Below are positions 7,966 through 34,395 of a stretch of 64,000 nucleotides of DNA, piece by piece. Position numbers and translations under genes: made by a program. This stretch comes from an uncultured Verrucomicrobiae bacterium (lineage in GTDB: Bacteria; Verrucomicrobiota; Verrucomicrobiia; Limisphaerales; Palsa-1400). Where the stretch lies: assembly GCA_963764165.1 (NCBI GenBank), contig CAVXRD010000001.1, positions 1-64,000 on the forward strand. Reading direction: 5' to 3'. A model generated the notes under the pieces. The model saw only the letters and a program-made list of their open reading frames with translations, made no database searches and had not been told where the DNA came from. The stretch's first letter is position 1. The number at the start of each line of letters is the position of its first letter.

Positions 7966-9042
7966 ATGAAAACAAAAAATCATATTGTGGTTCTGGCCGC
8001 CAGCTTCTTCGCAGCGGCCGTGGGCGCTTTGGCTGCGGACGATGTTCAGACTTATTCGGTCCCAAAGGGGCATCCGCCCATCGTTCAAACTCCCGCAGCC
8101 GCGCCTGGCGCCACCGAGCTCGAAATTAGTGCGGCGCCCATCCGATGGACGACGCCCGGCGAATGGCAAGAACTCCCGGCCACGAGTGTGCGCATTGGCA
8201 ACTTCGTTGTGCCCGGCAAGGGTGACAAAAAGGCAGAGGTGGCCATCACATCCTTTCCCGGCAAAGTGGGTACGGAATTGGACAACGTTAACCGCTGGCG
8301 TCGTGAGATAGGGTTGAAACCGGTGGAGGAAAGCAGCATCTCATCGCAGGCTGTCAGTATCGATTCCCATGATGGAAAGCTATACGATTTCTCTGGGGCA
8401 TCAGCTAACACCGTGGTTGTCTTGCTGCCTCGCGAGGGCGCCACCTGGTTTTTCAAATTGCGCGGCGACAAAGAGACAGTTAATGGATCGAAGGCTTCCT
8501 TTCTAGCTTTCTTAAGGTCAGTTCGTTTCAGCGGGGAGGCCGAGCATAAGCCGATGGCAACTTTGGAAGCAATGCCCTCTGATCCGCACGCCGGCGCCAT
8601 ACCAGCCATTGACAACGCTGATGGCGAACCCAAATGGAATCCCCCCTCCACCTGGAACCCCAATCAACCTGGCCCGATGATTGTTAAGAGCTTTTCCGTG
8701 CCGGGCGATCAAGGTCGGAAGGCAAACGTTGCCGTTAGCGTCTTCCCCGGCGATTTCGGCGGCGCGTTTGCGAATGTAAATCGGTGGCGCGCCCAGATGG
8801 GACTCGCCGCGATTAAGCAAACCGAACTTTCCAAAACAACTCAGCCACTGCAAGTCGCGGGCACCGCGGCGATTTTGGTGGATTTGAGCAATCCAAACAG
8901 TCCAGCGCGCCTGGTGGCGGCCATCGTCCCGCAAGGAGACAGAACTTGGTTCTATAAACTTGTCGGGGATGAATCGGTGGTGGCTAAGGAAAAGGATGGC
9001 TTTGTGAAATTTGTGCAAACGGTTCACTACCCTGAGCCATGA
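7966..9042 (+). CDS. Secreted protein with two tandem copies of an uncharacterised domain; first gene of the ccs operon
   Basis: Signal peptide; NVNRWR(R/A).(I/M)GL and TWF(F/Y)KL.GD each occur twice; ATGA overlap with the ResB-like gene. Confidence 0.8.
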   Translation: MKTKNHIVVLAASFFAAAVGALAADDVQTYSVPKGHPPIVQTPAAAPGATELEISAAPIRWTTPGEWQELPATSVRIGNFVVPGKGDKKAEVAITSFPGKVGTELDNVNRWRREIGLKPVEESSISSQAVSIDSHDGKLYDFSGASANTVVVLLPREGATWFFKLRGDKETVNGSKASFLAFLRSVRFSGEAEHKPMATLEAMPSDPHAGAIPAIDNADGEPKWNPPSTWNPNQPGPMIVKSFSVPGDQGRKANVAVSVFPGDFGGAFANVNRWRAQMGLAAIKQTELSKTTQPLQVAGTAAILVDLSNPNSPARLVAAIVPQGDRTWFYKLVGDESVVAKEKDGFVKFVQTVHYPEP

Positions 9043-10325
9043 TTAATCGCTTCGCCAAACTCTTCAGTTCGCTGCGGCTCACCATCGTGTGCCTGGGCCT
9101 TGCGCTCGTCTTGGTGTTCGCCGGCACGCTGGCCCAGGTGCGCCTGGGTCTCTACGTGGTGCAATCGGAATTCTTCCGCAGTTTCTTCATCTATTGGACG
9201 CCAGAAGGAAGCCATTGGAAAATCCCGGTTTTCCCGGGAGGCTGGACGATTGGGGTGGTTCTGGTGGTCAATCTCCTCGCCGCTCACATTCAAAGGTTCC
9301 ATTTCAGCCGCCGAAAAATCGGCCTCTTCCTTGTACACGCGGGCTTGATTCTTTTGTTAGCCGGTTTTTTTCTGACCGAAATTTTCCAAGTGGAAAGCCA
9401 GATGCGCATCGAGGTGGGTGAATCAAAAAGCTATGCCGAGGACAGCCGCCGCAATGAACTGGTCGTGATCGATGTTACCAATCCCGACCGCGATGACGTG
9501 GTCGCAATTCCGCAATCAGCCTTGGCACAGGGCGGGGAGATTCATCCTCCGGGCCTGCCCTTTGTGTTGCGTGTCAAACATTTCCTGCCCAATTCACTTC
9601 CGGCCGGCCCCATGTCCGGCGGCGGCGAAAAACTGAAGGCCGCCAACGGCATCGGCCAAAGATTGCTCTTCACTGCCGCGCCACCGGCGGGCCGGATGGA
9701 CGACGAAAATAAGCCCGCGGCGCTGATTGAGGTCGTGGCCGACAACAAGGCCATTGGCGAATGGACGGTTTCGACCTGGCTGACCAAGCGGCCATGGTCT
9801 TCGGAGTTGCAGGCACAATTTGGGGAACTTTTGGGTGTGCCGATTGAGGCGGCTCAGGGATTCGCATGGGCGGGCCATAATTACGAAATCGCCCTCCGCC
9901 CCGTTCGCTATTACAAGCCTTACAGCATCACATTGTTGGAATTCAAGCACGACGTCTATGCAGGCACAGACATTCCGAGCAATTTTTCCAGTAGAATTCA
10001 CTTGAGCGATCCGAAGCATGGCGAGGATCGCGATGTGCTGATTCGAATGAACAGCCCGTTGCGCTACGGTGGCGAAACCTATTATCAGGCCAGCTTTGAG
10101 CCGGGCGACAAGGTTTCGATTTTGCAGGTGGTGCATAACCCCGCTGCGGCCACCCCTTACGTGGCTTGCGCCCTCATTTGCGTCGGATTGCTGGCGCAGT
10201 TTCTCACGCACTTGTTTGGTTTTGCCAGGAGGGGCGCGAGCCCATCGCAGCTTGTCCCAGCCCGGTCAGAGGTCCCTGCGCACTTGGTGGAGCCTATGAT
10301 CGAGGCGGAAAGGAGTGAAGCATGA
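9039..10325 (+). CDS. ccsB: ResB/CcsB-like cytochrome c biogenesis protein (System II)
   Basis: FSSLRLTIVCL..GTLAQ, GLFLVHAGLILLL, IRMNSPLRYGGETYYQASF; adjacent to ccsA. Confidence 0.85.
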   Translation: MINRFAKLFSSLRLTIVCLGLALVLVFAGTLAQVRLGLYVVQSEFFRSFFIYWTPEGSHWKIPVFPGGWTIGVVLVVNLLAAHIQRFHFSRRKIGLFLVHAGLILLLAGFFLTEIFQVESQMRIEVGESKSYAEDSRRNELVVIDVTNPDRDDVVAIPQSALAQGGEIHPPGLPFVLRVKHFLPNSLPAGPMSGGGEKLKAANGIGQRLLFTAAPPAGRMDDENKPAALIEVVADNKAIGEWTVSTWLTKRPWSSELQAQFGELLGVPIEAAQGFAWAGHNYEIALRPVRYYKPYSITLLEFKHDVYAGTDIPSNFSSRIHLSDPKHGEDRDVLIRMNSPLRYGGETYYQASFEPGDKVSILQVVHNPAAATPYVACALICVGLLAQFLTHLFGFARRGASPSQLVPARSEVPAHLVEPMIEAERSEA

Positions 10326-12163
10326 AAAAATGGATTCCGTGGTTAATTACCGGTGCGGTTGCGCTATGGTTTGGCTCGGGAGCGCTAGCTCCCAAGCGGG
10401 TGGATGGTTTTGATTTGGCCGGTTTCGGGAGGCTGCCGGTCCTTCTCAACGGCCGCATTCAGCCTTTCGATTCTGTTGCGCGCAATGCTTTGCTCAGCAT
10501 GAGCGGGCGCTCGACGGTGCGGTTGGCGGACGGCGGTTCCCTGTCCGCCCCGCAATGGCTATTGGAGATCATGGCCAACTCAGCTCTGGCCGATCAAAGA
10601 AAAATTTTCCGCGTGCAACACCCTGATCTGCAGGGCTTGCTTGGCGCGGAGAACCAAGGGCTTCAGCACTACTCCTTCCATGATCTGACCAATCAGATTG
10701 ATCCTCTAGAATCGCAGGCGCTCAAGCTGGAGGAAGCGGAGAGCAAACAAGGCGGGGACGCGGAAAAAGCGCGCACTCCGTTTCAAAAGGACTTGATGCA
10801 TTTATATGACAGCGTTGTGCTTTACAACCGGCTCAAGAACAATCTTGGTCCTGCGGGTGCCGAGGATTTTCAAGGGGAAATTGAGCTGTTTGCGGCGACG
10901 GCGACCACAAATTCCTTCAGCGAGGAGAAGACGCGCCTGCTTGAGGGATTCTATCGACGCTACGCCCGGGCGGCCGATTTCGCGTATGTCAGAGCCATCC
11001 CGCCGCGGCTCGGCGAGGATCGCAGTGCCTGGACAAGTGCCGGAGCGAGCCTGACTGGTTCACGGGAGGTTCATCCCGCGGTCAGGTTTTTCGCAGCCAT
11101 GTCCACGGCCTATCAAACCAACGATCCCGCCAGCTTCAACCGGGCGCTGGCCGGTTATCGTGTCTGGCTGCAAGAAAACAATCTCGAGCCGGAACTGGCA
11201 AAAGGATCGCGGGAATTTTTCTTCAATCAACTCGAGCCATTTTACAAAAGCCTGGTGATTTACATTGCCGCCGTCCTGCTCGGGTGCGTGTTTTGGATCA
11301 ATTTTTGGGAACCGGCGCGGCGGACTGGAGTTGCGCTGCTGGCGCTGGCGTTCATCATTCACACTTTCGGATTGGGTTTCCGCATGTATCTTGAAGGCCG
11401 GCCGCCGGTCACTAATCTGTACTCTTCGGCCATCTTCATTGGCTGGGGGTCGGTGGCGCTGGGTCTCATTTTGGAGCGCATCTTCAAAGGCGGCATTGGT
11501 TTGGTGTCATCGGGTTTGATTGGATTCATCACCTTGATCATCGCGCACCATCTGGCGCTGAGCGGCGATACGATGGAAATGTTGCGCGCCGTGCTGGATA
11601 CCAATTTGTGGCTCTCGACTCACGTCGTCGTAATTACCATCGGATATGCGTCCATGTTTGTCGCCGGATTGCTGGCCGCGATTTATATCGTGCGCGGTTT
11701 CTTCACTCGAACGCTCTCCGCCGAAACCGCCCGCGCCCTGGCGAGGATGGTCTATGGCATTGTTTGCTTCGCCACGCTGACAAGTTTTATCGGAACAATT
11801 CTGGGAGGGATTTGGGCCGACCAATCCTGGGGCCGCTTTTGGGGTTGGGATCCCAAGGAGAACGGAGCGTTGATGATCGTTCTTTGGAATGCCATTATCC
11901 TGCATGCCCGATGGGGCGGCCTGATCAAGGAACGCGGCTTGATGGCCATGGCGGTGTTTGGCAATATTGTGACGAGCTTTTCATGGTTTGGAGTCAACAT
12001 GCTGGGGATCGGGCTGCATTCCTATGGTTTCATGGATGAAGCTTTCTTCTGGCTGATGGTATTCGATGCCACGCAAATCGCGCTCATCGTCTTTGCCCTG
12101 ACCCCGGGCCGGTTCTGGGCGAGTTTCGCGCCGCGTTTTGCCGCCAAGCCAAGCTTGGCTTAA
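10322..12163 (+). CDS. ccsA: Cytochrome c assembly protein CcsA/ResC with large N-terminal periplasmic domain
   Basis: WWD motif GGIWADQSWGRFWGWDPKE, RPPVTNLYSS, WLSTHV, GLHSYG. Confidence 0.95.
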   Translation: MKKWIPWLITGAVALWFGSGALAPKRVDGFDLAGFGRLPVLLNGRIQPFDSVARNALLSMSGRSTVRLADGGSLSAPQWLLEIMANSALADQRKIFRVQHPDLQGLLGAENQGLQHYSFHDLTNQIDPLESQALKLEEAESKQGGDAEKARTPFQKDLMHLYDSVVLYNRLKNNLGPAGAEDFQGEIELFAATATTNSFSEEKTRLLEGFYRRYARAADFAYVRAIPPRLGEDRSAWTSAGASLTGSREVHPAVRFFAAMSTAYQTNDPASFNRALAGYRVWLQENNLEPELAKGSREFFFNQLEPFYKSLVIYIAAVLLGCVFWINFWEPARRTGVALLALAFIIHTFGLGFRMYLEGRPPVTNLYSSAIFIGWGSVALGLILERIFKGGIGLVSSGLIGFITLIIAHHLALSGDTMEMLRAVLDTNLWLSTHVVVITIGYASMFVAGLLAAIYIVRGFFTRTLSAETARALARMVYGIVCFATLTSFIGTILGGIWADQSWGRFWGWDPKENGALMIVLWNAIILHARWGGLIKERGLMAMAVFGNIVTSFSWFGVNMLGIGLHSYGFMDEAFFWLMVFDATQIALIVFALTPGRFWASFAPRFAAKPSLA

Positions 12164-12171
12164 ACCACCGG

Positions 12172-12681: not shown

Positions 12682-12806
12682 TATTGACAAAGGTATCGCG
12701 GGGCTTCTCCGCCGTCCAGAGAATTGTTTTGGCTTGCTCCCGGCAATTCGGCTTGCAGATGGAATGCACGAATCGAGTTGCTCTATGTGCCTCGATTTGA
12801 TTGTTT

Positions 12807-14537
12807 TCATGGGATGAAGGCCGTGCTTCGGGGTTGTTCCTCAGATCCATTTATGGGCCGCTCCTCCAGCGCATGCTCCTCGGCCTGCCATTCCTCGGAA
12901 ACCCGGCCATCCATGCAAGCCCGGTTCAAGGGATAAACGTCCGGATCAAAAATGACGTGGTATAAATGCCAGACCACGATGGCCAGACACGCCAGAATGG
13001 CTTCGTAGTAATGAAAGGTGGTGGCGACATCAATCGCCCAGCGCGGCAGCCAGTGGGTGGTGGTGAGTTTGAACCAAATCATCAAACCCGTTGCGCCCAT
13101 GATGATCGTGCCCCAAACCACCGCCCAGTATTCCATCTTTTCCGCGTAGCCAAACCGCCCGAATTTCGGCTTTTCCTTCCCCAGTCCTGTCAAATACCTG
13201 GCATTGGCCGTCATGTCGCGCGCGTCCCTTGGCCTTGGAGCCATGTCCTTGATGAGTCTTCGGCCTTTCCGGGTGGCCGTCACGTAGCAGATATGATAGG
13301 CCCCCACCGCCAGAATGACGATGCCAGCGATGCGATGTCCCCCGCGTCGAATTCCTTCGTCCGATCCCAGGAGCCGCGAAATCCAGGAGTCGGGGAATTT
13401 CAAGGCGAAACCCGTCAGCGCCAAGAGAATAAAACTCAACGCCAAAACGAAGTGTTGCGCGCGCTGGGAGAAATCCATGCGCAACACGGAGCGGTCTTCG
13501 CGGCGCGCCCGCGCGGCCACTTTGCGTCCGAAGATCAAGGCGTTGTGCGCCGCCATCAACCCGATCACGCTGAAGATTAAAACCAGGTAAGCTTTGCGCA
13601 CCCACCAACTGATCTGCTGCCCGAAATCGCCGCCGACCTCGGCGGAGGCGGAGTCAATATGAATTTTACCCTGCTCAAAATTGGCGCTGGCGCCGGGATG
13701 GCATTGGCCGCATGTCGCCGCCAGATTGTCTTTGTAAATGGTTGAGCGCGGGTCGGTGGAGGCAAGAATTTTATGGAAACCGTGGCAACTGCCGCAGTTG
13801 GCTGCCCGGGTCGAACCGAATTGCGCCGCCAGCCCGTGGTAACTGGCGAAGAACGTCTTTACGCGGTCGGCCGGCAAATTGAACTTGGTGTTGAGCCGCT
13901 CCGACGCGTGGCACTGGCTGCATATTTCTGAAATCGCGAGGGAGGAGCGGTTCTTGAGGCCCTGTATTTTGTGTTCCGAATGGCAGCCAGTGCAGGTGGG
14001 AGCATCGCGCCTTCCGACAGCCAGCGCCTGGCCGTGAACACTTTCGATCACGTCGCGAGACTCTTGTTCGTGGCATTGGCCGCAAGTCCTGGCCAGATTC
14101 GTAAAATGGAGCGGCGACGCGGGCAAATCCGCCGACAGGATATCATGTTTGCCATGGCAGTCGATGCACTGCGGGGCTGCGTGCGTGCCATTGTGCGCAT
14201 GGGCCATGCGGGCGTTGCCATGGACGCTCAACCCGTACGAGAGCGATTGATCTTTGTGGCAGCGCGAGCAATTGACCAGCCGCGCGGCCAGATTATCGTC
14301 CGGATGTTTGACAGTCAGATCACTGTGGCAACTGGCGCAGGAAGTCTTTTGATGCGCCGAACCGGCAAGAACGGCTGCGTCCACGTAGAGCAGCTTGGCC
14401 ACGCCCGCCGCGTTGGTCGAGGTCAAGGTTTTGTCGCTATGGCACTCCAGGCAATCGCTGTTCTTGATGTCTGCTGCAGTTAAAGCCGCCGCCCCAAGCC
14501 ATCCCGCCGCAAGGAAGATAAACACGCGGTTGAACAT
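12807..14537 (-). CDS. CbcL-like inner-membrane protein: 9-heme cytochrome c domain + FdnI/HydC-type cytochrome b domain
   Basis: Signal peptide and 9 CxxCH motifs, then TM helices with QRAQH, GHRIAG, RFGYAEKMEYWAVVWGT, FHYYEAILA and WHLYHV. Confidence 0.88.
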   Translation of the reverse strand: MFNRVFIFLAAGWLGAAALTAADIKNSDCLECHSDKTLTSTNAAGVAKLLYVDAAVLAGSAHQKTSCASCHSDLTVKHPDDNLAARLVNCSRCHKDQSLSYGLSVHGNARMAHAHNGTHAAPQCIDCHGKHDILSADLPASPLHFTNLARTCGQCHEQESRDVIESVHGQALAVGRRDAPTCTGCHSEHKIQGLKNRSSLAISEICSQCHASERLNTKFNLPADRVKTFFASYHGLAAQFGSTRAANCGSCHGFHKILASTDPRSTIYKDNLAATCGQCHPGASANFEQGKIHIDSASAEVGGDFGQQISWWVRKAYLVLIFSVIGLMAAHNALIFGRKVAARARREDRSVLRMDFSQRAQHFVLALSFILLALTGFALKFPDSWISRLLGSDEGIRRGGHRIAGIVILAVGAYHICYVTATRKGRRLIKDMAPRPRDARDMTANARYLTGLGKEKPKFGRFGYAEKMEYWAVVWGTIIMGATGLMIWFKLTTTHWLPRWAIDVATTFHYYEAILACLAIVVWHLYHVIFDPDVYPLNRACMDGRVSEEWQAEEHALEERPINGSEEQPRSTAFIP

Positions 14538-22311: not shown

Positions 22312-23397
22312 ATGATGTTTGTGGCCGGCATCAGCTTCAAAACCGCCCCCGTCGCTCTCCGCGAGCAGTTAGCCGTTGTTCCATCACGCCTGATCGAATC
22401 CTCGGCCCGCGTCAAAGCGGAGGCTGGCCTGTCCGAGTTGACTGTGCTATCCACTTGCAACCGCGTCGAACTTTACGGAGTCGCCAGCCAAACGAGCGGA
22501 TTGGGTGAACTTCTCAATTTACTTGCGCAAACCAGCCTGGATATCTCCGCTTATATCTATGTGCACACGGGCGAGGCTGCCATGCGCCATCTTTTTGCCG
22601 TGGCCAGCGGCTTGGATTCAATGGTCCTGGGCGAAACGGAAATCACCGGCCAGATAAAAACCGCCTACGAAGCAGCCCGCGCGGCCCAGCTCACCGGCCG
22701 CGTCCTCAACGCCGCCTTTCAACGCGCTTTTCAAGTCGTCAAAGCCATTCGCACCGAAACTCAAATTGGGCGCGGCGCCACTTCTGTCGGCAGCGTCGCC
22801 GTTCAGTTGGCCGAACGAATTTTCGGCGGTGATTTTCACGACAAGACGGTCATGATCATTGGCGCCGGTAAAATGGGAGAAGCCTGCCTGCGCCACCTGG
22901 CCAAGAAAGGCGTCCAATCCATCATTGTGGCCAATCGAACGCTTGAAAACGCGGAACAATTGGCCCGCGAGCTGGGGGGACGCGCCGTCAACTATATGGA
23001 TGACGGATTGGCCGTCATGACGGAAGCGGACATTGTCATCAGTTCAACCGGCTGCCCTGCCACCATCATGGATCGCGAAGACGTGGAAGTGGTGATGCGC
23101 CAGCGCCCGGACCGCCCGCTTTTTCTCATTGATATCGCCGTGCCGCGGGACATCGCCGCCGACGTGCAGGAACTGAAGAACGTTTTTCTCTACAACATGG
23201 ACCACTTGGAAACGCTGATGCGTGAAAACGTAAAGCTGCGGGAGCAGGAAGTGGCCCGATGCCATGACATCATCCAAGAGCACACTGAAGCTCTCACGGC
23301 AAAGCTAAACACCGCCCCTCTGCCCGAGCGCCGGACGGCAACGGCTCCGCAACCTGGCTGGGCTCTGTGCGGTTCGGCTCAAGCGCAGGCCATATAA
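22312..23397 (+). CDS. hemA: Glutamyl-tRNA reductase
   Basis: LSTCNRVELY, SGLDSMVLGETEITGQ, IGAGKMG, IDIAVPRD. Confidence 0.96.
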   Translation: MMFVAGISFKTAPVALREQLAVVPSRLIESSARVKAEAGLSELTVLSTCNRVELYGVASQTSGLGELLNLLAQTSLDISAYIYVHTGEAAMRHLFAVASGLDSMVLGETEITGQIKTAYEAARAAQLTGRVLNAAFQRAFQVVKAIRTETQIGRGATSVGSVAVQLAERIFGGDFHDKTVMIIGAGKMGEACLRHLAKKGVQSIIVANRTLENAEQLARELGGRAVNYMDDGLAVMTEADIVISSTGCPATIMDREDVEVVMRQRPDRPLFLIDIAVPRDIAADVQELKNVFLYNMDHLETLMRENVKLREQEVARCHDIIQEHTEALTAKLNTAPLPERRTATAPQPGWALCGSAQAQAI

Positions 23398-23519: not shown

Positions 23520-24314
23520 ATGAAAACATCGAGAATACTAATCCTCGGTTTATTGACAGGAGGGGCGCTCCTGGCGCCGGGTCTGGCCCAGGCTGCCACC
23601 ACGCCTGGCATGGTGAACTCACCCCACGACTTCACCGTTTCCACAAACTTGTGGGTCAACGGGGTGACAAATTGGGTGCCCAATAACAGCGTGTGCGAGG
23701 AATGCCATACAGTCCACAAGGCCGACGCCGCTTACAAGAATGCGGGTCCTTTGTGGGCGCACAACATGTCGGGCAACACCTATACGCCCTTCACCAGTCC
23801 CACGTTGAAGGCCGATGGCTACGCCAACGGCGGAACGCCGGGCTGGAGTTCCCTGGCCTGTCTTAGCTGCCATGATGGATCTGTGGCCATCAATTCCCTC
23901 AACGGCAGCGTGGCCAGCACTCCGGTCAACTTGCCCAATGGAACGACGTTCCAGATTGCCGTCGGCGGGACCGACCTCAGCGGGACGCACCCAATCGGGA
24001 TTGATTACAATGTCGTTCAGCCAGTGGATGGTTATTTGAACGCATCCTCAACCATTGTGCAAAATGCCGGCGCGGACAGCGGGGTCAAAACGATCCAGCA
24101 GGAATTGCTCTTCAATGAGACGGGCACCGGCGGCGGGTCGGGCATGATCGAGTGCGCCAGTTGTCATGATATTCATCAACAAATGGGTGTCTCGGGCACA
24201 AGCCCCACCGGCACGACCATGAAATACAGGGATGCGCTGAAAATCGGCGGCATCAATCCCTTCAACGGAAATTCCTCCTCGCAGGCTCTTTGTTTGACTT
24301 GTCATATCAAATAG
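23520..24314 (+). CDS. Secreted tetraheme cytochrome c, OmcE-like
   Basis: Sec signal and 4 CxxCH. Motif order SPHDF, VCEECHTVH, PLW, SLACLSCHDG, DLSGTHPIG, ECASCHDIH, ALCLTCHIK matches G. sulfurreducens OmcE as I recall it. Confidence 0.85.
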   Translation: MKTSRILILGLLTGGALLAPGLAQAATTPGMVNSPHDFTVSTNLWVNGVTNWVPNNSVCEECHTVHKADAAYKNAGPLWAHNMSGNTYTPFTSPTLKADGYANGGTPGWSSLACLSCHDGSVAINSLNGSVASTPVNLPNGTTFQIAVGGTDLSGTHPIGIDYNVVQPVDGYLNASSTIVQNAGADSGVKTIQQELLFNETGTGGGSGMIECASCHDIHQQMGVSGTSPTGTTMKYRDALKIGGINPFNGNSSSQALCLTCHIK

Positions 24315-24350
24315 CGCGGACGCGGTTGGCGTTTCGCAGCCGCCATGCAT

Positions 24351-24391
24351 GGGCGTCTGAATCCAGAAGGAACAGGCGCCCCATTTTTTTT
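24351..24391 (+). terminator. Intrinsic terminator after the OmcE-like gene
   Basis: GGGCGTCTG...CAGGCGCCC stem followed by T8 (24384-24391). Confidence 0.7.
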
Positions 24392-24487: not shown

Positions 24488-25574
24488 GTGAAGAAAATAA
24501 TTCATTATGGCAATTTAATGCGGGCGGGGCTTCTCGCCCTTCTGGCCGTTGGTTGCGCCACTACCAAACCGGCGCCATCTCACTTCGTGTTTTTTCCAGG
24601 CGCGCCCGATCCGCCCCGGCTGCAGGTACCTTGTCAGTTTTGGGACTGAGAAAGACCTCGGGACCGAGGAGTCCGGCTTCTCCCAGTTCATCACGGGTCA
24701 AAAAAAATCCGACAAATCGCTCGGCAAAGTCTACGGCCTGGCCATGCACGACAAGAAGATTTATGTGTGCGATTCGGAGTATAACTCCGTTCTGGTGCTG
24801 GACGTGGCCAAGCGATCCCTGGATTCGCTGCCGCTGGAAGGAGAAACGGCGCTGTCCGAACCAATCAATATCACCATCAGCCAGGATGGCACGCGCTACA
24901 TCGCCGATGCCCGGCGTGAACAGGTGCTATGCCTGGACGCTTCCAACCAATTGAATTGGGTGCTGGGACACAAGGGAGAAATGAAGCCGCGGGACGTTGC
25001 CGTCGGCCAGGACCGAATTTATGTGGCGGATGTCCAGGCTCATGCGGTTCGTGTTTATGATAAATCCGCCACCAACCTCCTCTACTCCATTCCCCGGGAC
25101 GAAGACCGCAAGAACTCCAACGCGATCCTGCTTATGCCCAGCAATCTCGCCCTTGATGCCGAAGGCCGTCTCTATGCCTCGGACACCGCAGCCGGCCGCG
25201 TCGAAGTCTATGGAAAGGATGGCCGCTACGTGCAAACCCTGGGCGGGTTCGGTGACGCGCCGGAACACGGACTGCTCAAGCGCCCCAAAGGAGTGGCAGT
25301 CGACCGCGCGGGAGTGGTTTATGTCGTGGACGCGGTTTACGAGCTGGTGCAAATGTTTGACAGCCAGGGAAATTACTTAATGTGCTTTGGCTATCCTGGC
25401 TTGTCCTCAACGGCCGGCCTGCACTTGCCCGCCAAAGTCATAGTTGACTACGACAACGTGGGCCTGTTTGCGAGGTACGCCGCGCCGGATTTCAAAATTG
25501 ACTATCTCGTTCTAGTCACCAGCCAGTTCGGCCCGCGCAAAGTTTCCGTCTTCGGATTCGGCCACAAGAAATAG
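24488..25574 (+). CDS. NHL-repeat (beta-propeller) lipoprotein with an apparent single-base frameshift
   Basis: Lipobox LAVGC in the frame of ORF 24290. Removing one G at 24625-24626 joins PPRLQ to YLVSF in ORF 24549..25574. NHL repeats present (RPKGVAVD, IYVAD). Confidence 0.85.
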
Positions 25575-25581
25575 CCTCGCC

Positions 25582-26487
25582 ATGCGCCGCCATACCGCCA
25601 TCTCCTTGGTTATCGCCGGGGGCATTTGCGCGGCGATTTTTCTAGCCGGCTGTGCCTCATCCGGTCACCGGCGGTGGCTGAATGTTTTTTTTGACGGGGT
25701 TCCCGATCCCTCGGCGCAAGCGCAAAAAAGGCCCGGTCCCGCGCTCCCGCAGACGAATGCCGCCGGGGCCAAACCCGGGCCGGCGGTTCCTCCGCAGCCG
25801 CCCCAAACCGTCTTTTTCAACCACAAGCCTTACGGTGAGGATAACTGCCTGGCATGCCACGAATCTCGCTTCTCCATTGGAATGAGAGGCTCAATGAAGG
25901 AAGTTTGCTTCAACTGCCACAAAGACCTGGCGCCCACAGTCGCGCCCAAGTCTGCCCACCAGCCCTTTGGCGACGGCGAATGCGCCTCATGTCACAACGC
26001 CCACTATTCTACCAACAAATTTCTGCTCGTCAAAACGGCCAAAGCGCTCTGCGCCGATTGTCATGATCCGGTGGTGGCCAAGCCCAAATCCATCCATCAA
26101 CCGTACGGGGATGGCGATTGTCTCTCCTGCCACAGCGCGCATACATCCACTAATAAATTCCTCGTCACGCGCGCGGGGAAATCCCTCTGTTTCGATTGCC
26201 ACGATGATTTCCTGGCCAAAGCGAAATTCAAGCATGACCCAGCCGGAAACGGTGAATGCGCATCTTGTCACAATCCTCATGCCTCGGTTAATAGCGCCCT
26301 CCTCGTCAAGGAATCGCAGAAATTGTGCTTCGATTGTCATGAAGAAAAAGACATCGCCGCCGCCAAAGGCCACGCGAACATGGGCAACGCCACCTGCCTC
26401 AGTTGCCACGATCCCCACCTAGGATCCGACCAGTACCTGCTCAGGGTGGCAAAGGTTGCCGCCAAACCTTCCATCTCGCCGCCATGA
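25582..26487 (+). CDS. 9-heme cytochrome c lipoprotein (paired CxxCH repeats)
   Basis: Lipobox FLAGC, FFDGVP motif, 9 CxxCH in repeated HxP..G.C..CH..H.S...LL....LC..CH units. Confidence 0.9.
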   Translation: MRRHTAISLVIAGGICAAIFLAGCASSGHRRWLNVFFDGVPDPSAQAQKRPGPALPQTNAAGAKPGPAVPPQPPQTVFFNHKPYGEDNCLACHESRFSIGMRGSMKEVCFNCHKDLAPTVAPKSAHQPFGDGECASCHNAHYSTNKFLLVKTAKALCADCHDPVVAKPKSIHQPYGDGDCLSCHSAHTSTNKFLVTRAGKSLCFDCHDDFLAKAKFKHDPAGNGECASCHNPHASVNSALLVKESQKLCFDCHEEKDIAAAKGHANMGNATCLSCHDPHLGSDQYLLRVAKVAAKPSISPP

Positions 26488-28454
26488 AACTGTCCGGTCA
26501 AACGTGGCCCGCATGGATGCTCGCCCTGCTGTTTTCATCGCTGCTGACCCGGCGCCTGATGGCTCAGGACGGCACGCACTGGCTAAACTTGAGGCCAATA
26601 ACGGCTTTTACGGAGATGGATGTGGAATGGGAAAAGGATACGGAAACCGTCGGCAGCATGAAGATCAACTCGGATCGCTTGTATTTGGCTCCCACTCTTG
26701 GACTGGGACTAAGCGGTTCGATCTATCATCCCAACTTGTTGCAATTCGATATCAAGGGGCAGGGCGGATATATCGAACAAGACCTCAGCAGCCAATATGG
26801 CTCGGCCCGCCAGAGCTCCACACAGGACAGTTATCTGCAAAATTACGATGTGAACCTCTCGCTTCTGAGGAATCAGCCTTATGCAGCGAATTTCACCGCG
26901 ACCAAAACGCACACTATTCAGGAATTGGATGCGTTCAATCAAGTCATGGTGGACAGCCAGAGTTATGGGTGCCAGCTAGGCTACAAGGCGGGCCCGATTC
27001 CCTTCAGCCTAAGCCTGAAACATCTGGACGAAACCGAAACCGGCCTCGCCTACAACAATGCGTTTGCGCAGGACAGCCTGGATTTCAACGCCGCCAACGA
27101 GCGGGCGCGCGGCAGCACAACTTTCAGCTACGAACTCGGCCAATACACCCAAACTACGACCGACATTGCCCAAAAGCAGACTTACCAATATGGCACCTTG
27201 CAGGATGTCGAGAAGTTCTGGAAGGACGACCGTGGCCGGCTGACCTCGATGGTCTATTTCAACCAGGAGGATGAGAGCGGCAATGAAGCGGACAACGTGA
27301 CCGTCCAGGAAAACCTCGCCCTCTGGCACTCTCCATCCTGGAATAGCTTCTACAATTACAACTACAATGACTCCTACGTCGATCCCGCCGACACTACGAC
27401 GCACCTTGCCACGATCGGATTGCGCAATCAGCTCTACGAGAGTCTTTCTTCAGCCATGGACGTTCACGGCACACTGGAAAACGAATCCGCGCCGGGCAAC
27501 TCGGCCGCCGAGACAACTTATGGAATTGGCAATTCCGAGACTTACAGCAAGCGCCTGGGCAACTGGGGGCATCTGACCCTCGGCAATACAGCCCGCTTCG
27601 ACTGGACGCACGATAATAATAGCGGCGCCGTCAACACCGTCTTCAACGAGCAGCACGCCCTGACCGACGGCACCCCAACGTTTCTGACCCAGCCGCGTGT
27701 TTTGGCCGTGACCAAAGTCACTGACCCAACCGGCGTCCACGTTTACCTCAATGGCATTGATTACGCGCTCGTGAGGGCGGGAAGCGGGATGCAGATTGAG
27801 CGCGTTCCCACCTCGCTCAATCTGACTAACAACTCGTCCGTTCTGGTCAACTATACGGTGCAGGCAGAGCCATCAGGCTCCTACACCACCTTCAGCGACC
27901 AAGTCCAATTGCGATTGGATCTATTCAACGGATTGGCCGATGTTTATTCGGGGCTGGGCTGGGTTGAGAACCAGGCGCCCGCTGATTTCGTTTTGGAGAA
28001 TAGCTTCTCGACTCTGTCCGGCTTTGACTTCAACTGGCGCTGGCTGCGGGCCGGCGGGACGTATGAAACGCAGAATGCCAGCCTGATCAGTTACATCACC
28101 CGCGGGCTATATCAGACGGCAACTTTCCGGCCCGACAACAGCTCTACATTCAGCATTAATGCTCGCGAGCAGTGGATGGAGTACTTCCAGCCGCAGCAAT
28201 CCATAGCCGATTACACCTTTACCGCGCGTTACTCCGAACGGTTTAACCGCCATTTGGATGGCACCGTGGAGGCGGGAGTTCTGAATCAAGCCGGCGGCCC
28301 GCAGGCGGAAACGTTGTTCACGGCTGGCGCACACATCAAGTATTTCGTCGGCAAATTGTCTTTCTCGCTCGCCTACCAATTCAATCAACAGAACACGTTG
28401 AACGGCGCTGCCGAGAGAAACCTCTTCAGTTTCACCGCCCGGCGCGACTTCTAA
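26484..28454 (+). CDS. Putative outer-membrane beta-barrel (porin) of the cytochrome cluster
   Basis: Signal peptide, GSIYHPNLL motif, Y/N/S/T-rich alternating strands, C-terminal Phe (FTARRDF); ATGA-coupled to the cytochrome gene. Confidence 0.82.
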   Translation: MKLSGQTWPAWMLALLFSSLLTRRLMAQDGTHWLNLRPITAFTEMDVEWEKDTETVGSMKINSDRLYLAPTLGLGLSGSIYHPNLLQFDIKGQGGYIEQDLSSQYGSARQSSTQDSYLQNYDVNLSLLRNQPYAANFTATKTHTIQELDAFNQVMVDSQSYGCQLGYKAGPIPFSLSLKHLDETETGLAYNNAFAQDSLDFNAANERARGSTTFSYELGQYTQTTTDIAQKQTYQYGTLQDVEKFWKDDRGRLTSMVYFNQEDESGNEADNVTVQENLALWHSPSWNSFYNYNYNDSYVDPADTTTHLATIGLRNQLYESLSSAMDVHGTLENESAPGNSAAETTYGIGNSETYSKRLGNWGHLTLGNTARFDWTHDNNSGAVNTVFNEQHALTDGTPTFLTQPRVLAVTKVTDPTGVHVYLNGIDYALVRAGSGMQIERVPTSLNLTNNSSVLVNYTVQAEPSGSYTTFSDQVQLRLDLFNGLADVYSGLGWVENQAPADFVLENSFSTLSGFDFNWRWLRAGGTYETQNASLISYITRGLYQTATFRPDNSSTFSINAREQWMEYFQPQQSIADYTFTARYSERFNRHLDGTVEAGVLNQAGGPQAETLFTAGAHIKYFVGKLSFSLAYQFNQQNTLNGAAERNLFSFTARRDF

Positions 28455-28457: not shown

Positions 28458-29498
28458 ATGAAAAAGAAGATGCCAAAACCAAATTCGTCCACAACCTCCT
28501 TTCTGGTTGCGATTATGGTATTGGCTTTTGCCTCATGCGCGTCCAGTTCTTCAATTCATGCTCCCAGCGTCCCTGCCCGCGTTTACCCACAAGCACCCGC
28601 CCTCGCGCGCCTGGAATATGTCCAGTCGATTCGCGTGCCCGCGGACATGGATCTTAAGCCATCTGCCTGGTCCCGCATGAATTCCTGGATCACCGGCCGG
28701 GGTGGCCCAGCTCCGGTTCTGGCCAAGCCCTTCGGCCTGTGCTTGGACGAATCGTCGAATTTATGTGTGACTGACATGGAATCGGCGAGCGTCTGTTTCT
28801 TTGATCTAACACACGGAGCTTTCCACCAATGGAACAAGATTGGAGCCATGGTTCTGCAATCGCCTGTGGCGGTGGCAAAACGGAAGGATGTTTTCTATGT
28901 GGCCGATTCGAAATTGGGGCTGGTGCTGGCTTTCAATTCTACCGGCCATTTGCTTTGTTCCATTTCCAATCAATTAGTGCGCCCCGCCGGACTGGCGGTT
29001 GCGTCCGACCGGCTGTATGTGGCCGATTCCCAGTTGCACCACGTAGCTGTATTTGATTTGTCGGGCCACTACCTTTTCCAATTTGGGCGGCGCGGCATCG
29101 CTCCGGGCGAATTCAATTTCCCGACGCACATTGCCCTGGCGCCGGGCGGCCAAATTCTGGTCACTGACTCAATGAACAGGCGGATTGAAGCATTTGACTC
29201 CAACGGCGCTTTCCAATCCGTCATAGGCGGCGCTGGCGAGAGTTCCGGACATTTCACCAGGCCAAAAGGCGTGGCCAGCGACAGTTATGGGCACATTTAC
29301 GTCGCGGACGCCCTTTTCGATAACTTCCAGATTTTCGATTCGGCCGGGCAATTTTTGCTGGATGTTGGATCGACGGGCGCGGAACCGGGAGAATTCTGCC
29401 TGCCAGCCGGAGTCGTCATTAGCCCGGACAATCGCATTTTCGTCGCCGATTCCTACAACCATCGCGTGCAGGTATTCAAATACATTGGTCCGCCATGA
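28458..29498 (+). CDS. NHL-repeat lipoprotein
   Basis: Lipobox-like AFASC; repeats GEFNFPTHIA, FTRPKGVA, IYVAD, ADSYNHRVQVF. Confidence 0.92.
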   Translation: MKKKMPKPNSSTTSFLVAIMVLAFASCASSSSIHAPSVPARVYPQAPALARLEYVQSIRVPADMDLKPSAWSRMNSWITGRGGPAPVLAKPFGLCLDESSNLCVTDMESASVCFFDLTHGAFHQWNKIGAMVLQSPVAVAKRKDVFYVADSKLGLVLAFNSTGHLLCSISNQLVRPAGLAVASDRLYVADSQLHHVAVFDLSGHYLFQFGRRGIAPGEFNFPTHIALAPGGQILVTDSMNRRIEAFDSNGAFQSVIGGAGESSGHFTRPKGVASDSYGHIYVADALFDNFQIFDSAGQFLLDVGSTGAEPGEFCLPAGVVISPDNRIFVADSYNHRVQVFKYIGPP

Positions 29499-31222
29499 AC
29501 GCCCCCTTAACAACAAGGATAGTGTGGTTGGTAATTCTACTGCAAGCCACTCTGCTAAGGGCGGAGAGCATCTTGAACTCGCCACATAACCTCTCCGTGG
29601 GCGGCCCCGGCTCGATCAAGGCGGCGGCGGAAGCGGACGCCTGCATTTTTTGCCATACTTCACACGGGGCGGCCCCTCAGTCGCCTTTGTGGAACCACAC
29701 TAGCTCGGGCGCAACCTACACGCCCTATAACAGCAGCACGATCAAGGCAACCGTGGGCCAGCCGACGGGTGCTTCCAAGCTATGCCTTAGCTGCCACGAC
29801 GGCACCGTGGCGCTGGGTTCGCTACGCGGGAGCAGCACCACGATTAAGATGCAGACCAACGCCTCCGTGATGCCATCTGGCAAATTCAATCTGGGCACCG
29901 ATCTTTCCGGTGACCATCCGATTTCCTTTGTCTATGATGCGAATCTGGCCGCCAGCGATTCCGGATTGAAAAGCCCGGCGACTCTCACAAGCAAAGTGCG
30001 CCTGGACAGCAACAAAGAGCTGCAATGCACTTCCTGCCATGATCCGCACGATAATCAGTTCGGCAATTTCATGGTGCAAAACAATTATGGTTCCGCGCTT
30101 TGCCTCAATTGCCACAACATCACCGACTGGGGCGCCTCTATTCATAACACTTCGCCCGCGGTCTGGAACGGCCAGGGACAGAATCCGTGGCCAGGCGCCT
30201 CGTTGAAATCGGTCGCGGCCAATGCCTGCGAAAGTTGCCACGCCAACCACAACGCCGGCACCAAGCCCCGCCTGCTCACGGCCATCAACCAGGAGCAAAG
30301 TTGCTACGTTTGCCATAGTGGCACCGTGGCCATGAAAAACATCCGGTCCGAGTTCACCAAATGGAGCGCTCATCCCGTCGAATTGACCGCCAATTTGCAC
30401 GACGCCGCCGAAGATCTCATCAATTCGCCACGGCATGTCTCCTGTGCCGATTGCCATAATCCACACGCCAGCAAAGCCCAGCCCGGCACAAGCTCAACTC
30501 TCTCCGGCGCATTAGCGGGCATGAAAGGCATCAACTCGTCCGGCGCGCCGGTCAAGCCACTGGCCAAGGAGTTCGAACTCTGCTTTCGTTGTCATGCCGA
30601 CAGCCACAGCAAAGGGCCGGCCATGGTTATCCGGCAGACTCCGCAAACGAACAAGCGCCTCCAATTCAATCCCTCCAACGCTTCTTTCCATCCTGTGGAA
30701 AGCGCGGGGAAAAACGCATTTGTGCCCAGCCTGATCGCGCCCATGAATGCGGCCAGCGTGATTAACTGCACCGACTGTCATAATAACGACCAGGGTCCCG
30801 GCGCAGGCGGAAGCGGCCCGCGCGGGCCGCATGGTTCGGCTTACGCGCCGTTGCTCGAACGGCAGCAAATTCTGACTGATATGTCTGCCGAAAGCGCTGC
30901 CAGCTTCGCCTTGTGCTACAAGTGCCACAGCCGGGCCAGCATTCTGGCCAACCAAAGTTTTCCGGGCCATTCCCGCCACATTCTCAATTATCAAACCGCC
31001 TGCACGACTTGTCACGATTCCCACGGCGTGTCGTCCAACCCCAACCTTATTAACTTCAACTCGGCCTATGTGACGCCAGCTCCCAGCGCAGGATTGAGCT
31101 ATACCACCGCCGGCCGGGGACGTGACAATTGCACTTTGTCCTGCCACGGCAGCGTCCACCTCAACCGCAGTTACGACCGTCCGGCCACACTGCAAAAGCG
31201 CTCGTTGACGAAAGGATTCTAA
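29495..31222 (+). CDS. Secreted multiheme cytochrome c (11 CxxCH + 1 CxxxCH) with an N-terminal OmcE-like module
   Basis: Motifs CIFCH, CLSCH, CTSCH, CLNCH, CESCH, CYVCH, CADCH, CFRCH, CTDCH, CYKCH, CTTCH and CTLSCH. Confidence 0.92.
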   Translation: MNAPLTTRIVWLVILLQATLLRAESILNSPHNLSVGGPGSIKAAAEADACIFCHTSHGAAPQSPLWNHTSSGATYTPYNSSTIKATVGQPTGASKLCLSCHDGTVALGSLRGSSTTIKMQTNASVMPSGKFNLGTDLSGDHPISFVYDANLAASDSGLKSPATLTSKVRLDSNKELQCTSCHDPHDNQFGNFMVQNNYGSALCLNCHNITDWGASIHNTSPAVWNGQGQNPWPGASLKSVAANACESCHANHNAGTKPRLLTAINQEQSCYVCHSGTVAMKNIRSEFTKWSAHPVELTANLHDAAEDLINSPRHVSCADCHNPHASKAQPGTSSTLSGALAGMKGINSSGAPVKPLAKEFELCFRCHADSHSKGPAMVIRQTPQTNKRLQFNPSNASFHPVESAGKNAFVPSLIAPMNAASVINCTDCHNNDQGPGAGGSGPRGPHGSAYAPLLERQQILTDMSAESAASFALCYKCHSRASILANQSFPGHSRHILNYQTACTTCHDSHGVSSNPNLINFNSAYVTPAPSAGLSYTTAGRGRDNCTLSCHGSVHLNRSYDRPATLQKRSLTKGF

Positions 31223-31453: not shown

Positions 31454-31783
31454 ATGAAACAAACAAAATTAATTCTAGTTCTCCTGGCCTTGGCAGCCGG
31501 AACGGCAGTGGCCTCGGCCTCCGATGTTGATGCCATCTGGGAAAAGAGCTGCCAGAAGTGCCACGGCGCCGACGGCAAAGGCGACACAAAAATGGGCGCC
31601 AAGGTCGGTGTGAAAGATCTTACCGATGCCAAGTACCAAGCCTCGTTCAAGGACGAAGCCGCCTTCAAGGCGATCAAAGAAGGCATCAAGGAAGATGACA
31701 AAACCAAAATGAAGCCCGCGGAAGGCCTGACCGACGACGACATCAAAGCCTTGGTTGCCAAGTCCCGCAGTTTCAAGAAATAA
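31454..31783 (+). CDS. Periplasmic monoheme class I cytochrome c
   Basis: Signal peptide, CQKCHGADGKG, distal Met in KMKP, LTDDDIKALV. Confidence 0.92.
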   Translation: MKQTKLILVLLALAAGTAVASASDVDAIWEKSCQKCHGADGKGDTKMGAKVGVKDLTDAKYQASFKDEAAFKAIKEGIKEDDKTKMKPAEGLTDDDIKALVAKSRSFKK

Positions 31784-31814
31784 GCCGTCGAAACAACCAC
31801 CACACCCCGCACAC

Positions 31815-33305
31815 ATGGCAACAGAATCAGCCAATCCAACCCCACGCTCCAAGTCGCTTCTCCGCAATTGGACAAGTTTGACCGGAATCGTTTTGATGGC
31901 GGCGAGCGGGTTCGCGTTTCTGTTGCTGTTCTTTTTGGACGCGGTCGCGCCGACGGCCAATCCTTACATTGGCATCCTCGCCTACCTCGTCGCGCCCGCC
32001 TTTTTCTTCGGCGGGCTCACTCTGGTGATTATCGGCGTTTGGTTTCGCCGCCGCCGTCTGGCCAAAGTCGAGCACGTCACTGGCTCTCTGCACATCGATA
32101 TCGACTTTGGCCGCAAACGGGATCGCCGCATCCTGACATTTTTCATCCCCGCCTCCGCTGGTTTTCTATTGCTAACAGCGATGGGAAGCTATCATAGCTA
32201 CGAGTTTACTGAATCTGTCACTTTTTGCGGCGAGGCCTGCCATACGGTCATGCAGCCGGAATTTGTGACGTATTCACATTCGCCGCACGCGCGGGTGGCG
32301 TGCGCGGAATGCCACATAGGAAAGGGCGCGGAATGGTATGTTCGCTCAAAGCTATCGGGAACTTATCAAGTATACGCGGTGATGGCCCATAAGTACGCGA
32401 AGCCGATTGCAACTCCCATCAAGAACCTGCGTCCCGCCCAGGAAACCTGCGAGCAATGCCACTGGCCGGCCAAGTTCGTCGGCGACGTCGATAGAACATT
32501 CAATTACTTCATCCCCGACAAGACCAACACGGAGTATTCCGTCCGTATGCTGCTTAAAGTCGGCGGCGGCGACCCAACGCATGGACCCGTTGGCGGAATT
32601 CATTGGCACATGAATGTGGGCAATAAGATTGAGTATCTTGCCTCTGACGAGAGCCGCCAGAAAATTCCCTGGATTCGCGTCACCGATAAAAAGGGCGATG
32701 TTACCGAATATCGCACCGCAAAATTCACCAACGAGGTCAACATCGCCGCTGTTCGCAGGATGGACTGCATGGATTGCCACAATCGGCCGGCCCACAAGTT
32801 TAATTCGCCTGAAAGCACCGTAAACATGGCCATGGCCCTCGGCGATATCGATGCGGCCTTGCCATGGATCAAGACCAACGCGGAAGCGGTATTGTGCCGA
32901 GCCTACACGAACGAAGATGAAGCCATCGAAAAAATCTCGGCCACCCTTTCCGATCGTTACCCCAACGATGCGCGCATCAGGCCCGCCATCGCAGCAGTGC
33001 AGAATATTTACACGAACAATTTCTTTCCCGAAATGAAGTCTAGCTGGAAGGCCTACCCGGATAACATCGGCCACAAGGATTGGCCGGGCTGCTTTCGCTG
33101 CCACGACGGCCAGCACGTGAGCGTCGCCAAAGACGGCATGAAGAAGATTATCAGCAACGATTGCAATGCCTGCCACACCATTCTATCGCAGGGGAATGCG
33201 GAGCAAATGAAATTGGCCAGTCCGATGGGGCAGAAATTCGCCCATCCGCAGGACGAGTATGACCCCGCGTTTCAGTGCACGGATTGCCACAATGGCGGAC
33301 TGTAG
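31815..33305 (+). CDS. ImcH-like NapC/NirT-family membrane multiheme cytochrome (7 hemes)
   Basis: 3 N-terminal TM segments; FCGEACH, CAECH, TCEQCHWP, GIHWH, MDCMDCHNRPAH, FPEMK..W..YPDNIGH, GCFRCHD, CNACH, CTDCH. Confidence 0.88.
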   Translation: MATESANPTPRSKSLLRNWTSLTGIVLMAASGFAFLLLFFLDAVAPTANPYIGILAYLVAPAFFFGGLTLVIIGVWFRRRRLAKVEHVTGSLHIDIDFGRKRDRRILTFFIPASAGFLLLTAMGSYHSYEFTESVTFCGEACHTVMQPEFVTYSHSPHARVACAECHIGKGAEWYVRSKLSGTYQVYAVMAHKYAKPIATPIKNLRPAQETCEQCHWPAKFVGDVDRTFNYFIPDKTNTEYSVRMLLKVGGGDPTHGPVGGIHWHMNVGNKIEYLASDESRQKIPWIRVTDKKGDVTEYRTAKFTNEVNIAAVRRMDCMDCHNRPAHKFNSPESTVNMAMALGDIDAALPWIKTNAEAVLCRAYTNEDEAIEKISATLSDRYPNDARIRPAIAAVQNIYTNNFFPEMKSSWKAYPDNIGHKDWPGCFRCHDGQHVSVAKDGMKKIISNDCNACHTILSQGNAEQMKLASPMGQKFAHPQDEYDPAFQCTDCHNGGL

Positions 33306-33535
33306 AAGATGGTTCCGGATTAGCCGCAATTCTAGACTATCAATTGCCAAAGATGGTGGAGCGCTGGGCTGTCGGTGCAGTTTAATTGTCGAATATGAAG
33401 CCTCCTTTAATTGAGCCGGAAGATGAAGCTGCGCCCGGGGTTGCCGGCCCAAGGACAGATTTCAAGCCAATGGCAGGCGAACGGGTTGGTCAAGCCGAAA
33501 CCTCGCTGTCGCAACCTTGGTCGCAGCGTCTGGCA

Positions 33536-33565
33536 GAAATCAGAACACACGAAATCAGAACACAC
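33536..33565 (+). repeat. 15-bp tandem duplication (GAAATCAGAACACAC x2)
   Basis: Seen directly, upstream of adk. Confidence 0.85.
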
Positions 33566-33624
33566 GAATATTCGCCTCTCGACGATTAGTCAGGCGGGGA
33601 CTTCGCTAACTCAAGAGGAATGAT

Positions 33625-34395
33625 ATGAATGCAATGGCTTACAGCAAAAACAGGGTGAATGACCGCGCAGCATGGCTCAAAGCCGGCGACGCCTGCTGTG
33701 AAATAACGCCCGGCCCGGCGAAACATTTTTGCCGCTTGGTTTTGCTCGGCGCGCCCGGCGTGGGAAAGGGAACTCAAGCCGATATGCTCCGCCAATGGTC
33801 TGGCGCCTGCCATCTTTCCACTGGCGACATTTTCCGTGCCGCCAAGAGCCTGTCCCCCGCCGAACGATCCCCAGCCATCCAAAGCGCGCTTGGCTTCATG
33901 ACGCGGGGCGAGTTGGTTCCCGACGGCACGGTGCTCGATCTGTTGCGCGAGCGGGTGCGCTGCCTGCGCTGTCATGGCGGATTCTTGCTGGATGGTTTTC
34001 CGCGCACCGTCGCTCAAGCGGATGCACTGGAACAATTGCTCAGATCGGAAATCTTGCCTCTGACCGCCGTCATCGACTACGAGCTGCCAATTGAACAGAT
34101 CGTGGAGCGATTGGCCGGGCGGCGCGTATGCACCGATTGCAAGGGCACGTTTCATGTGACAGGCCTGGCATTGCCGGAGACCTGTCCTCATTGCGGCGGA
34201 TGTCTCGTGCAACGCGAGGATGATCGACCCGAAGCCATACAAGTCCGCATGGAAGCGTATCGCCGCAGCACCGAACCGCTGATTGAGTTTTATCGCCAGT
34301 GCGGATTATTATTAGCCGTTTCCGCCGATGGCACACCCCTTGAAATTTTTCAGCGAACAGTAAACTCCTTGACCCAGCGCCATTCGATGGCCTGA
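33625..34395 (+). CDS. adk: Adenylate kinase family protein (4-Cys lid)
   Basis: LLGAPGVGKGTQA, HLSTGDIFR, LDGFPRT, CTDC..CPHC, QREDD. Confidence 0.92.
   Translation: MNAMAYSKNRVNDRAAWLKAGDACCEITPGPAKHFCRLVLLGAPGVGKGTQADMLRQWSGACHLSTGDIFRAAKSLSPAERSPAIQSALGFMTRGELVPDGTVLDLLRERVRCLRCHGGFLLDGFPRTVAQADALEQLLRSEILPLTAVIDYELPIEQIVERLAGRRVCTDCKGTFHVTGLALPETCPHCGGCLVQREDDRPEAIQVRMEAYRRSTEPLIEFYRQCGLLLAVSADGTPLEIFQRTVNSLTQRHSMA

Follow-up and report, generated by a model that had tools for sequence, protein, structure and literature searches.

An OmcE/UetA-type tetraheme cytochrome as candidate subunit of an extracellular heme wire in an uncultured Limisphaerales bacterium

In the cytochrome nanowires OmcS and OmcE, one heme of each subunit is ligated by a histidine of the adjacent subunit (PMC9473688; PMC12307469). 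The trans-ligated heme of OmcS is the penultimate one (heme 505), and its hemes stack in motif order (PMC6584659). The OmcE structure from D. soudanensis, published in 2026, is presented as the first for a bacterial cytochrome wire from a species other than G. sulfurreducens, and its authors leave unanswered how OmcE wires are anchored or capped (PMC13712944). As described there, an omcE cluster at its smallest encodes the subunit, a large barrel, and two each of multihemes and propeller lipoproteins (PMC13712944). Verrucomicrobiota is absent from the five phyla for which that paper gives barrel and propeller genes, and the string ‘verrucomicrob’ occurs nowhere in its main text (PMC13712944). 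The uet cluster comprises the tetraheme UetA, a PPIase, a 28-strand barrel, trihemes, a cupredoxin, two NHL proteins, and the undecaheme UetJ; its authors raise the possibility that UetA and UetJ interact or polymerise, and OmcE is never named in the accessible text of the preprint (bioRxiv 10.1101/2022.05.06.490989). Carriers of uet include Ca. Tenderia electrophaga, the Tenderiales, and some Gallionella (bioRxiv 10.1101/2022.05.06.490989; PMC10734462).

Freshwater Verrucomicrobia carry porin-multiheme clusters, and Geobacter-type outer-surface cytochromes were reported as not found in their genomes (PMC5615132; PMC6344600). The word ‘nanowire’ appears nowhere in PMC5615132. Our search of openly accessible literature for OmcE cytochrome nanowires in Verrucomicrobiota gave only a paper on ImcH. 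Fe(III) respiration in Limisphaera, published in 2026, is reported as the first iron reduction in Verrucomicrobiota (PMC13608581). Limisphaera belongs to the Limisphaerales, which is also the order of the host considered here. RecA of this genome points the same way: among its relatives of 93–95% identity that are named to a taxon, 7/8 are Verrucomicrobiota, one of these being Limisphaerales, whereas TIGR02600, tried as a marker of the phylum, had only a weak and partial match. The type of system described below is already known, and what this locus adds is the host phylum and a candidate for the anchor.

The window, a 64,000-nt stretch of an assembled contig, contains a gene on the plus strand (23520..24314) for a 264-aa OmcE/UetA-type tetraheme cytochrome c, hereafter P0001, which is a candidate filament subunit. 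A hydrophobic stretch at residues 6–24 followed by AQA|A suggests, by inspection, a Sec signal peptide without a lipobox. The whole protein has exactly eight Cys and nine His. Its heme motifs are C59xxCH63, C114xxCH118, C212xxCH216, and C258xxCH262, its distal histidines are H36 (PHD), H66 (CHTVH), H157 (HPI), and H219 (CHDIH), and it ends with LCLTCHIK followed by the stop codon. A first-pass annotation of this DNA had noted that the order of the motifs and the distal histidines mirrors OmcE. This holds, with every histidine that it named invariant in 119/119 aligned homologues; its inventory was right for the four distal histidines and overlooked a ninth invariant one, H81, in the motif PLWAH.

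The likeness to OmcE extends beyond the motifs. A phmmer search of the PDB with P0001 (E ≤ 10) gave two matches only, 7TFS, the OmcE nanowire of G. sulfurreducens (3.8e-11), and 9YUQ (2e-8), the latter probably being the D. soudanensis OmcE bundle, as judged from its 16 chains and its likeness. Identity to OmcE is 23–27%, with long insertions. The AlphaFold2 model of P0001 (pLDDT 84.2, pTM 0.80) predicts an OmcE-like fold: Foldseek returned 7TFS as the sole match (E 2.8e-6; TM 0.51 by query and 0.64 by target), and VIA-align against 48,161 chains placed it at Z 13.6, with an rmsd of 2.7 Å over 180/202 residues. The runners-up in VIA-align were OmcS (Z 3.8) and the Mtr complex entry 6r2q (Z 2.7); no further family stands above Z 4 among its matches, where absence rules out none. 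The comparison of predicted structures proposed in the first-pass annotation thus agrees with its reading of P0001 as an OmcE-like tetraheme, as do the sequence matches. A predicted homodimer with four hemes scored 0.27 against a mark of 0.42 and was counted neither for nor against.

Homologue searches found 3058 proteins among 4785 candidates. All eight Cys and nine His are invariant in the 119 sequences that were aligned, which are the best 120 of the 3058 minus P0029, a sequence covering 56% of the query. A profile of the P0001 family matches 2240 representatives at E ≤ 1e-30, and the OmcE-like family is therefore large. In a tree, P0001 lies among the standalone tetrahemes, those of Geobacterales omcE loci included, apart from the N-terminal domains of undecahemes (100/97). 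What places P0001 in the OmcE family is thus four CxxCH motifs and four distal histidines in order, the predicted fold, and neighbours that include a barrel, judged by strand periodicity, C-terminal F, and Atlas neighbours, and NHL propeller lipoproteins, judged by Pfam and lipoboxes. The genome gave two OmcE-like matches, P0001 itself and an undecaheme domain; with no other standalone gene found, P0001 is not accessory to another major subunit. A scan of genome contigs with P0001 as the single query gave only four distant loci.

The genes downstream of P0001, all on the plus strand, make up the published minimal omcE set, as far as that set is described. They begin with an NHL beta-propeller lipoprotein (NHL1, 24518..25574; signal MRAGLLALLAVGC), whose frame is broken near 24627. 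A nonaheme lipoprotein with paired CXXCH motifs and an LAGC lipobox follows (25582..26487) and resembles the periplasmic wires MtrA and DmsE. The next gene (26484..28454) encodes a 656-aa outer-membrane beta-barrel with a C-terminal F and, by a crude count, ~28–31 amphipathic strands; it has no Pfam or NCBIfam match and shares homology with the barrel found in a locus of uet gene order. A second NHL beta-propeller lipoprotein (28458..29498) precedes a UetJ-type cytochrome (29495..31222) with 11 CxxCH and one CxxxCH motifs, hereafter the undecaheme, whose N-terminal ~190 mature residues are OmcE-like and which is a candidate anchor or cap. Further on lie a small monoheme cytochrome c (31454..31783), a candidate periplasmic shuttle, and an ImcH-like NapC/NirT inner-membrane cytochrome (31755..33305) with three TM helices, six CxxCH and one CxxxCH motifs, the real start of which is probably downstream of the ORF start. 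This last protein agrees with ImcH as described (bioRxiv 10.1101/2023.05.03.539133).

Upstream of P0001 by 122 bp, on the same strand, is hemA for glutamyl-tRNA reductase (22312..23397; TIGR01035 above cut-off). P0001 had been called the first gene of the cluster, which is true of the cytochrome module and not of the whole, since hemA precedes it and the hairpin scan described below found no terminator-like element in the 122-bp interval. The two genes may share one transcript. HemA of the window is short (361 aa), with its TIGR01035 match stopping at profile position 335/416; relatives match over the same length, and the C-terminal part seems, from these sequences, to be absent in this lineage. 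The cluster sits within an island of heme and cytochrome genes (6853–14537 and 31454–39760). Its upstream part includes hemC, a probable system II cytochrome c maturation pair (ResB-like and CcsB/CcsA-like, 9039..12163, plus strand), ferritin, a CbcL-like inner-membrane quinol oxidase with a nonaheme c and a cytochrome b part (12807..14537, minus strand), and hemA, and its downstream part has the ImcH-like gene followed by ORFs judged by eye to be hemE, hemN, hemY, and hemH. At 4221–4940, an IS-like transposase ORF fragment, also identified by eye, has a sensor kinase fragment on one side and a response regulator on the other. Elsewhere in this genome (G000), multiheme genes are found in a cluster with 5, 4, and 10 CxxCH motifs (C4:718757-729368) and at C2:1102591 and C2:2544308 (8 and 7 CxxCH).

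P0001 resembles the OmcE nanowire of 7TFS and of the D. soudanensis bundles as a tetraheme with the same motif order, four distal histidines, a CxxCHxK end, and the predicted fold, and its cluster, like omcE clusters, combines a large barrel with pairs of propeller lipoproteins and of multihemes. It differs by its long insertions and by a His where OmcE has Arg in PLWx[R/H]. No homology is detectable between the window's barrel and that of L001, a Geobacterales omcE locus preceded by purH and resB (HH probability 3%). Moreover, the window has an undecaheme with an OmcE domain, and it lacks the 8-heme protein with an OmcE-like C-terminus of Geobacterales omcE loci. The homologous barrel and accessory multihemes of the Desulfuromonadia omcE cluster at the purH-resB-ccsB locus are likewise not found in the window. 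With OmcS (6EF8), a hexaheme to which the P0001 model has a weak fold match (Z 3.8), P0001 would share heme packing and trans-subunit His ligation, as published for that wire (PMC9473688, PMC6584659).

The likeness to the uet cluster, as described in its preprint, covers the tetraheme (UetA), the barrel (UetC), two NHL proteins (UetH/I), the undecaheme (UetJ), and nearby ccsAB genes. In a uet-order locus (L067), a stand-in for Tenderia uet picked by gene order, the tetraheme matches that of the window at E 5e-12, the undecaheme at E 3e-52, and the barrel with an HH probability of 93%. By sequence, then, the window cluster is an omcE/uet-type system nearer to uet in its barrel and undecaheme, since these are homologous in L067 and the L001 barrel is not detectably so. 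The ORFs of the window cluster include no PPIase UetB, no c7 trihemes UetDEG, and no cupredoxin UetF; the window instead has the paired-CXXCH nonaheme lipoprotein and ImcH/CbcL-like quinol oxidases, pointing to electron export, as opposed to the uptake proposed for Tenderia. The porin-multiheme clusters of freshwater Verrucomicrobia, compared with the window by description only, share the phylum, a large novel porin, periplasmic and extracellular multihemes, and a proposed transfer to humics, and they differ in their octaheme periplasmic partners (PMC5615132; PMC6344600).

The first-pass annotation had also given the P0001 gene a terminator of its own. Folding confirms an intrinsic-terminator-like hairpin on the plus strand (24351–24381) followed by a T8 run (24384–24391), the element thus spanning 24351..24391, with a free energy of −20 kcal/mol (z −2.5; 3/200 shuffles fold equally well). 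A simple consensus scanner reported no terminator 3′ of the gene, probably because the loop exceeds the scanner's limit of 3–8 nt, and no promoter-like site on the plus strand between 22000 and 26000. Similar elements stand after homologous genes. A hairpin plus T-run of ≤ −15 kcal/mol follows 29/67 tetraheme genes vs 10/155 of their neighbours (6/106 other multiheme genes and 4/49 NHL genes), in a home-made, lax scan over related and hence not independent loci that also scored −17.4 inside the nonaheme gene. Such an element is also present 3′ of the tetraheme gene in three Geobacterales-type loci. This enrichment supports, at the level of sequence, the argument that the subunit is made in excess, in which the hairpin would keep subunit mRNA above that of the assembly genes.

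We propose, with a probability of roughly 0.65, that P0001 polymerises head to tail into an extracellular heme wire, of which it would be the abundant main subunit, within a system of the omcE/uet type. Membership of the OmcE family and a high-copy role as wire subunit are well supported by the fold, the histidine pattern, the cluster, and the conserved hairpin. Eight histidines of each subunit would ligate its four hemes, with H66, from the first CxxCHxxH, acting as donor to the open heme in the subunit before it. In the OmcS work of Wang in 2019, the donor is reportedly likewise the His of the first CxxCHxxH (His16). The acceptor would probably be heme 3, by analogy with OmcS; heme 4 had been considered as the open heme and was dropped, the trans-ligated heme of OmcS being the penultimate one (PMC6584659). 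H81 would then be a likely non-ligand basic residue at the docking face. Menaquinol would hand electrons to the ImcH-like and CbcL-like proteins, from which they would pass to the small cytochrome and the nonaheme lipoprotein, then across the barrel to the undecaheme, the filament, and finally Fe(III) or humics. Such a path from quinol oxidase to wire subunit in Verrucomicrobiota would offer a specific explanation of how members of the phylum may respire Fe(III) or humics.

The case for donation between subunits comes from the pattern of histidines. No heme unit precedes H66 in the chain, and yet it is invariant in 119/119 of the aligned homologues (from the best 120). A first heme with a His at +3 is present in 66/67 tetrahemes that end with CxxCHxx, vs 6/52 other multihemes of the same 85 loci. 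In three of six natural concatemers (P0379, P0380, P0383), the first domain lacks the donor His and later domains have it; one (P0381) is contrary, with a second domain that lacks it, and two are ambiguous. Within the cluster, only P0001 has an OmcE-like C-terminal acceptor end, and self-polymerisation is therefore the simplest use of H66.

The undecaheme could potentially explain how such a wire ends. Its N-terminal domain is OmcE-like (E 1.3e-52; HH 100%), and such domains fall on a separate side of the tree from all standalone tetrahemes (26 vs 19 rows, 100/97). Its H57 and W66 are invariant in 119/119 rows (the window protein and 118 of the best 120 matches, P0131 and P0164 being left out), even though no heme unit precedes them in the chain, and H252, in the next unit, could close the open heme of the domain itself. 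If H252 does so, the undecaheme, with its invariant H57 and nothing before it, could attach to a filament end but would not lengthen it. In the three Geobacterales omcE loci there is an 8-heme protein ending with LCxxCHxK (3/3), a candidate acceptor-type base for the N-terminal face of the filament. In these loci (L001-L003), this 8-heme cytochrome with its OmcE-like end lies at about 7365–8618. In the 27 loci that are 12 kb or longer, the undecaheme occurs alone in 12, an acceptor-ended multiheme alone in seven, both together in four, and neither in four; some of these loci are incomplete, and the acceptor class takes in 5-heme paralogues of the subunit.

Tentatively, and at somewhat less than even odds, we suggest that Limisphaerales have a His81 subfamily of OmcE-type nanowires ended by the undecaheme, in which His57 would reach the open heme of the last subunit, the undecaheme's own heme would be closed internally, and eight more hemes would lead to the barrel or the tip. 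The same tentative proposal, to be taken jointly, has the Geobacterales loci use instead an adaptor of opposite polarity, the 8-heme protein ending with LCxxCHxK. Among the papers listed by our searches of the openly accessible literature, none concerned an undecaheme anchor for OmcE wires. If true, the proposal would answer the anchoring and termination question of OmcE from gene content, and the donor face of the undecaheme makes it an anchor hypothesis open to direct test.

The same donor face could serve a shorter structure. At the barrel, the undecaheme might receive no more than one or a few tetraheme units, forming a short porin-cytochrome conduit of the MtrCAB or Uet kind, and its intact OmcE-type face (H57 and W66 in 119/119) could bind a single tetraheme. 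The uet preprint proposes such a conduit interaction for UetA and UetJ and mentions polymers as a mere possibility (bioRxiv 10.1101/2022.05.06.490989), and verrucomicrobial porin-multiheme clusters have been described as porin-cytochrome complexes (PMC5615132). A conduit would, however, leave the invariant H66 partnerless, given that P0001 has the only OmcE-like acceptor end in the cluster, and a part used 1:1 needs no terminator of its own, whereas the hairpin is enriched after tetraheme genes. We regard this arrangement as unlikely, and a decaying locus as far less probable still. The latter idea, that the cluster is no longer assembled, draws on the frameshift of NHL1, in which one extra base near 24627 parts the lipoprotein signal from the propeller body in this assembly. 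In an independent assembly, NHL1 is an unbroken 351-aa frame that is otherwise identical (P0254), and the frameshift is for this reason likely an assembly error; the remaining cluster genes are full-length when compared with a relative of the same family.

Improbable too, to a similar though slightly lesser degree, is a monomer capped by H81 as an extra ligand, which would make P0001 a soluble shuttle or a terminator. In its favour are the exact count of nine histidines, all invariant in 119/119 (from the best 120), and the preference for His at this position; an anchor proposal with nine His and four hemes is also found in the D. soudanensis paper (PMC13712944). H81 aligns with Arg (PLWNR) in both solved OmcE proteins (7TFS, 9YUQ). 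The position is occupied by 63 His and 12 Arg, with one unresolved, in 76 standalones, by 90 His and 29 Arg in 119 undecaheme domains, and by His in 126/143 further representatives, all of these samples having been drawn by likeness to a His-type query. It changes between His and Arg on both sides of the tree, in standalones and undecaheme domains alike, and Arg is no ligand of heme iron, which argues against capping. In addition, H81 lies 15 residues past the donor His, on what would be the face opposite the open heme, and OmcE of G. sulfurreducens has a spare His (AVHND) and polymerises nonetheless. A genome in which no other major subunit was found also speaks against a mere shuttle. A His three residues before the HP His (HxxHP) is the position that self-caps small tetraheme cytochromes; 21/119 aligned homologues (from the best 120) have one and P0001 does not, and the homologues that do may, by analogy, be capped variants. 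In the wire that we favour, H81 would contact a heme propionate, and it may have an extra role, being Arg in the solved wires but invariant in the 119 closest homologues.

Glycosylation of the filament had been hinted at on the strength of six N-x-S/T sequons. P0001 has seven, NMS at 82 having been overlooked, and this number is within chance for a protein rich in N, S, and T (20,000 shuffles: mean 4.0, sd 1.7, P = 0.08). The bacterial-type consensus, used here as a yardstick, is D/E-x-N-x-S/T, and no sequon of P0001 has this form. Each sequon is kept in only 1–10 of the 119 aligned homologues (from the best 120). A search for PF02516 (STT3/PglB) came up empty in the 97%-complete genome and was positive in 4/14 control genomes, and no glycosylation block adjoins the cluster in the window, where the flanks are heme genes, not sugar genes. 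The hint of N-glycosylation does not hold: the number of sequons is within chance, they are not conserved, and no oligosaccharyltransferase turned up in this genome. The sequon and adjacent-glycosyltransferase features of the glycosylated OmcE of the G. sulfurreducens type are not found in the window cluster, and for OmcE of D. soudanensis no glycan density is reported (PMC13712944).

A full-length standalone match together with an undecaheme was found in 5/60 relatives searched, and among 400 other genomes sampled from the phylum, with at most seven candidates scored per genome, two match at E ≤ 1e-15; the distribution is therefore patchy. These five relatives all keep the gene order of the cluster; in two of them it runs across contig breaks, one lacks the nonaheme gene and hemA, and hemA is upstream of the tetraheme gene in the other four. 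The multiheme encoded between NHL1 and the barrel has 9, 11, 13, or 15 hemes in the window and in L025, L026, L072, L083, L097, L098, and L102, and five in other loci. These steps in length by heme pairs would resemble a tunable wire that spans the periplasm. Split genes also occur at other places, affecting NHL1 in G007 and a nonaheme-like gene in G005. In each of the concatemers P0379, P0380, and P0383, a single chain holds two to four OmcE-like domains and continues into a long heme-free C-terminal extension, which gives it the look of a short covalent wire. Tetraheme or pentaheme paralogues stand in tandem, two or three at a time, in L035, L041, L074, and G386:C83, and most of those in the first three loci have their own hairpin.
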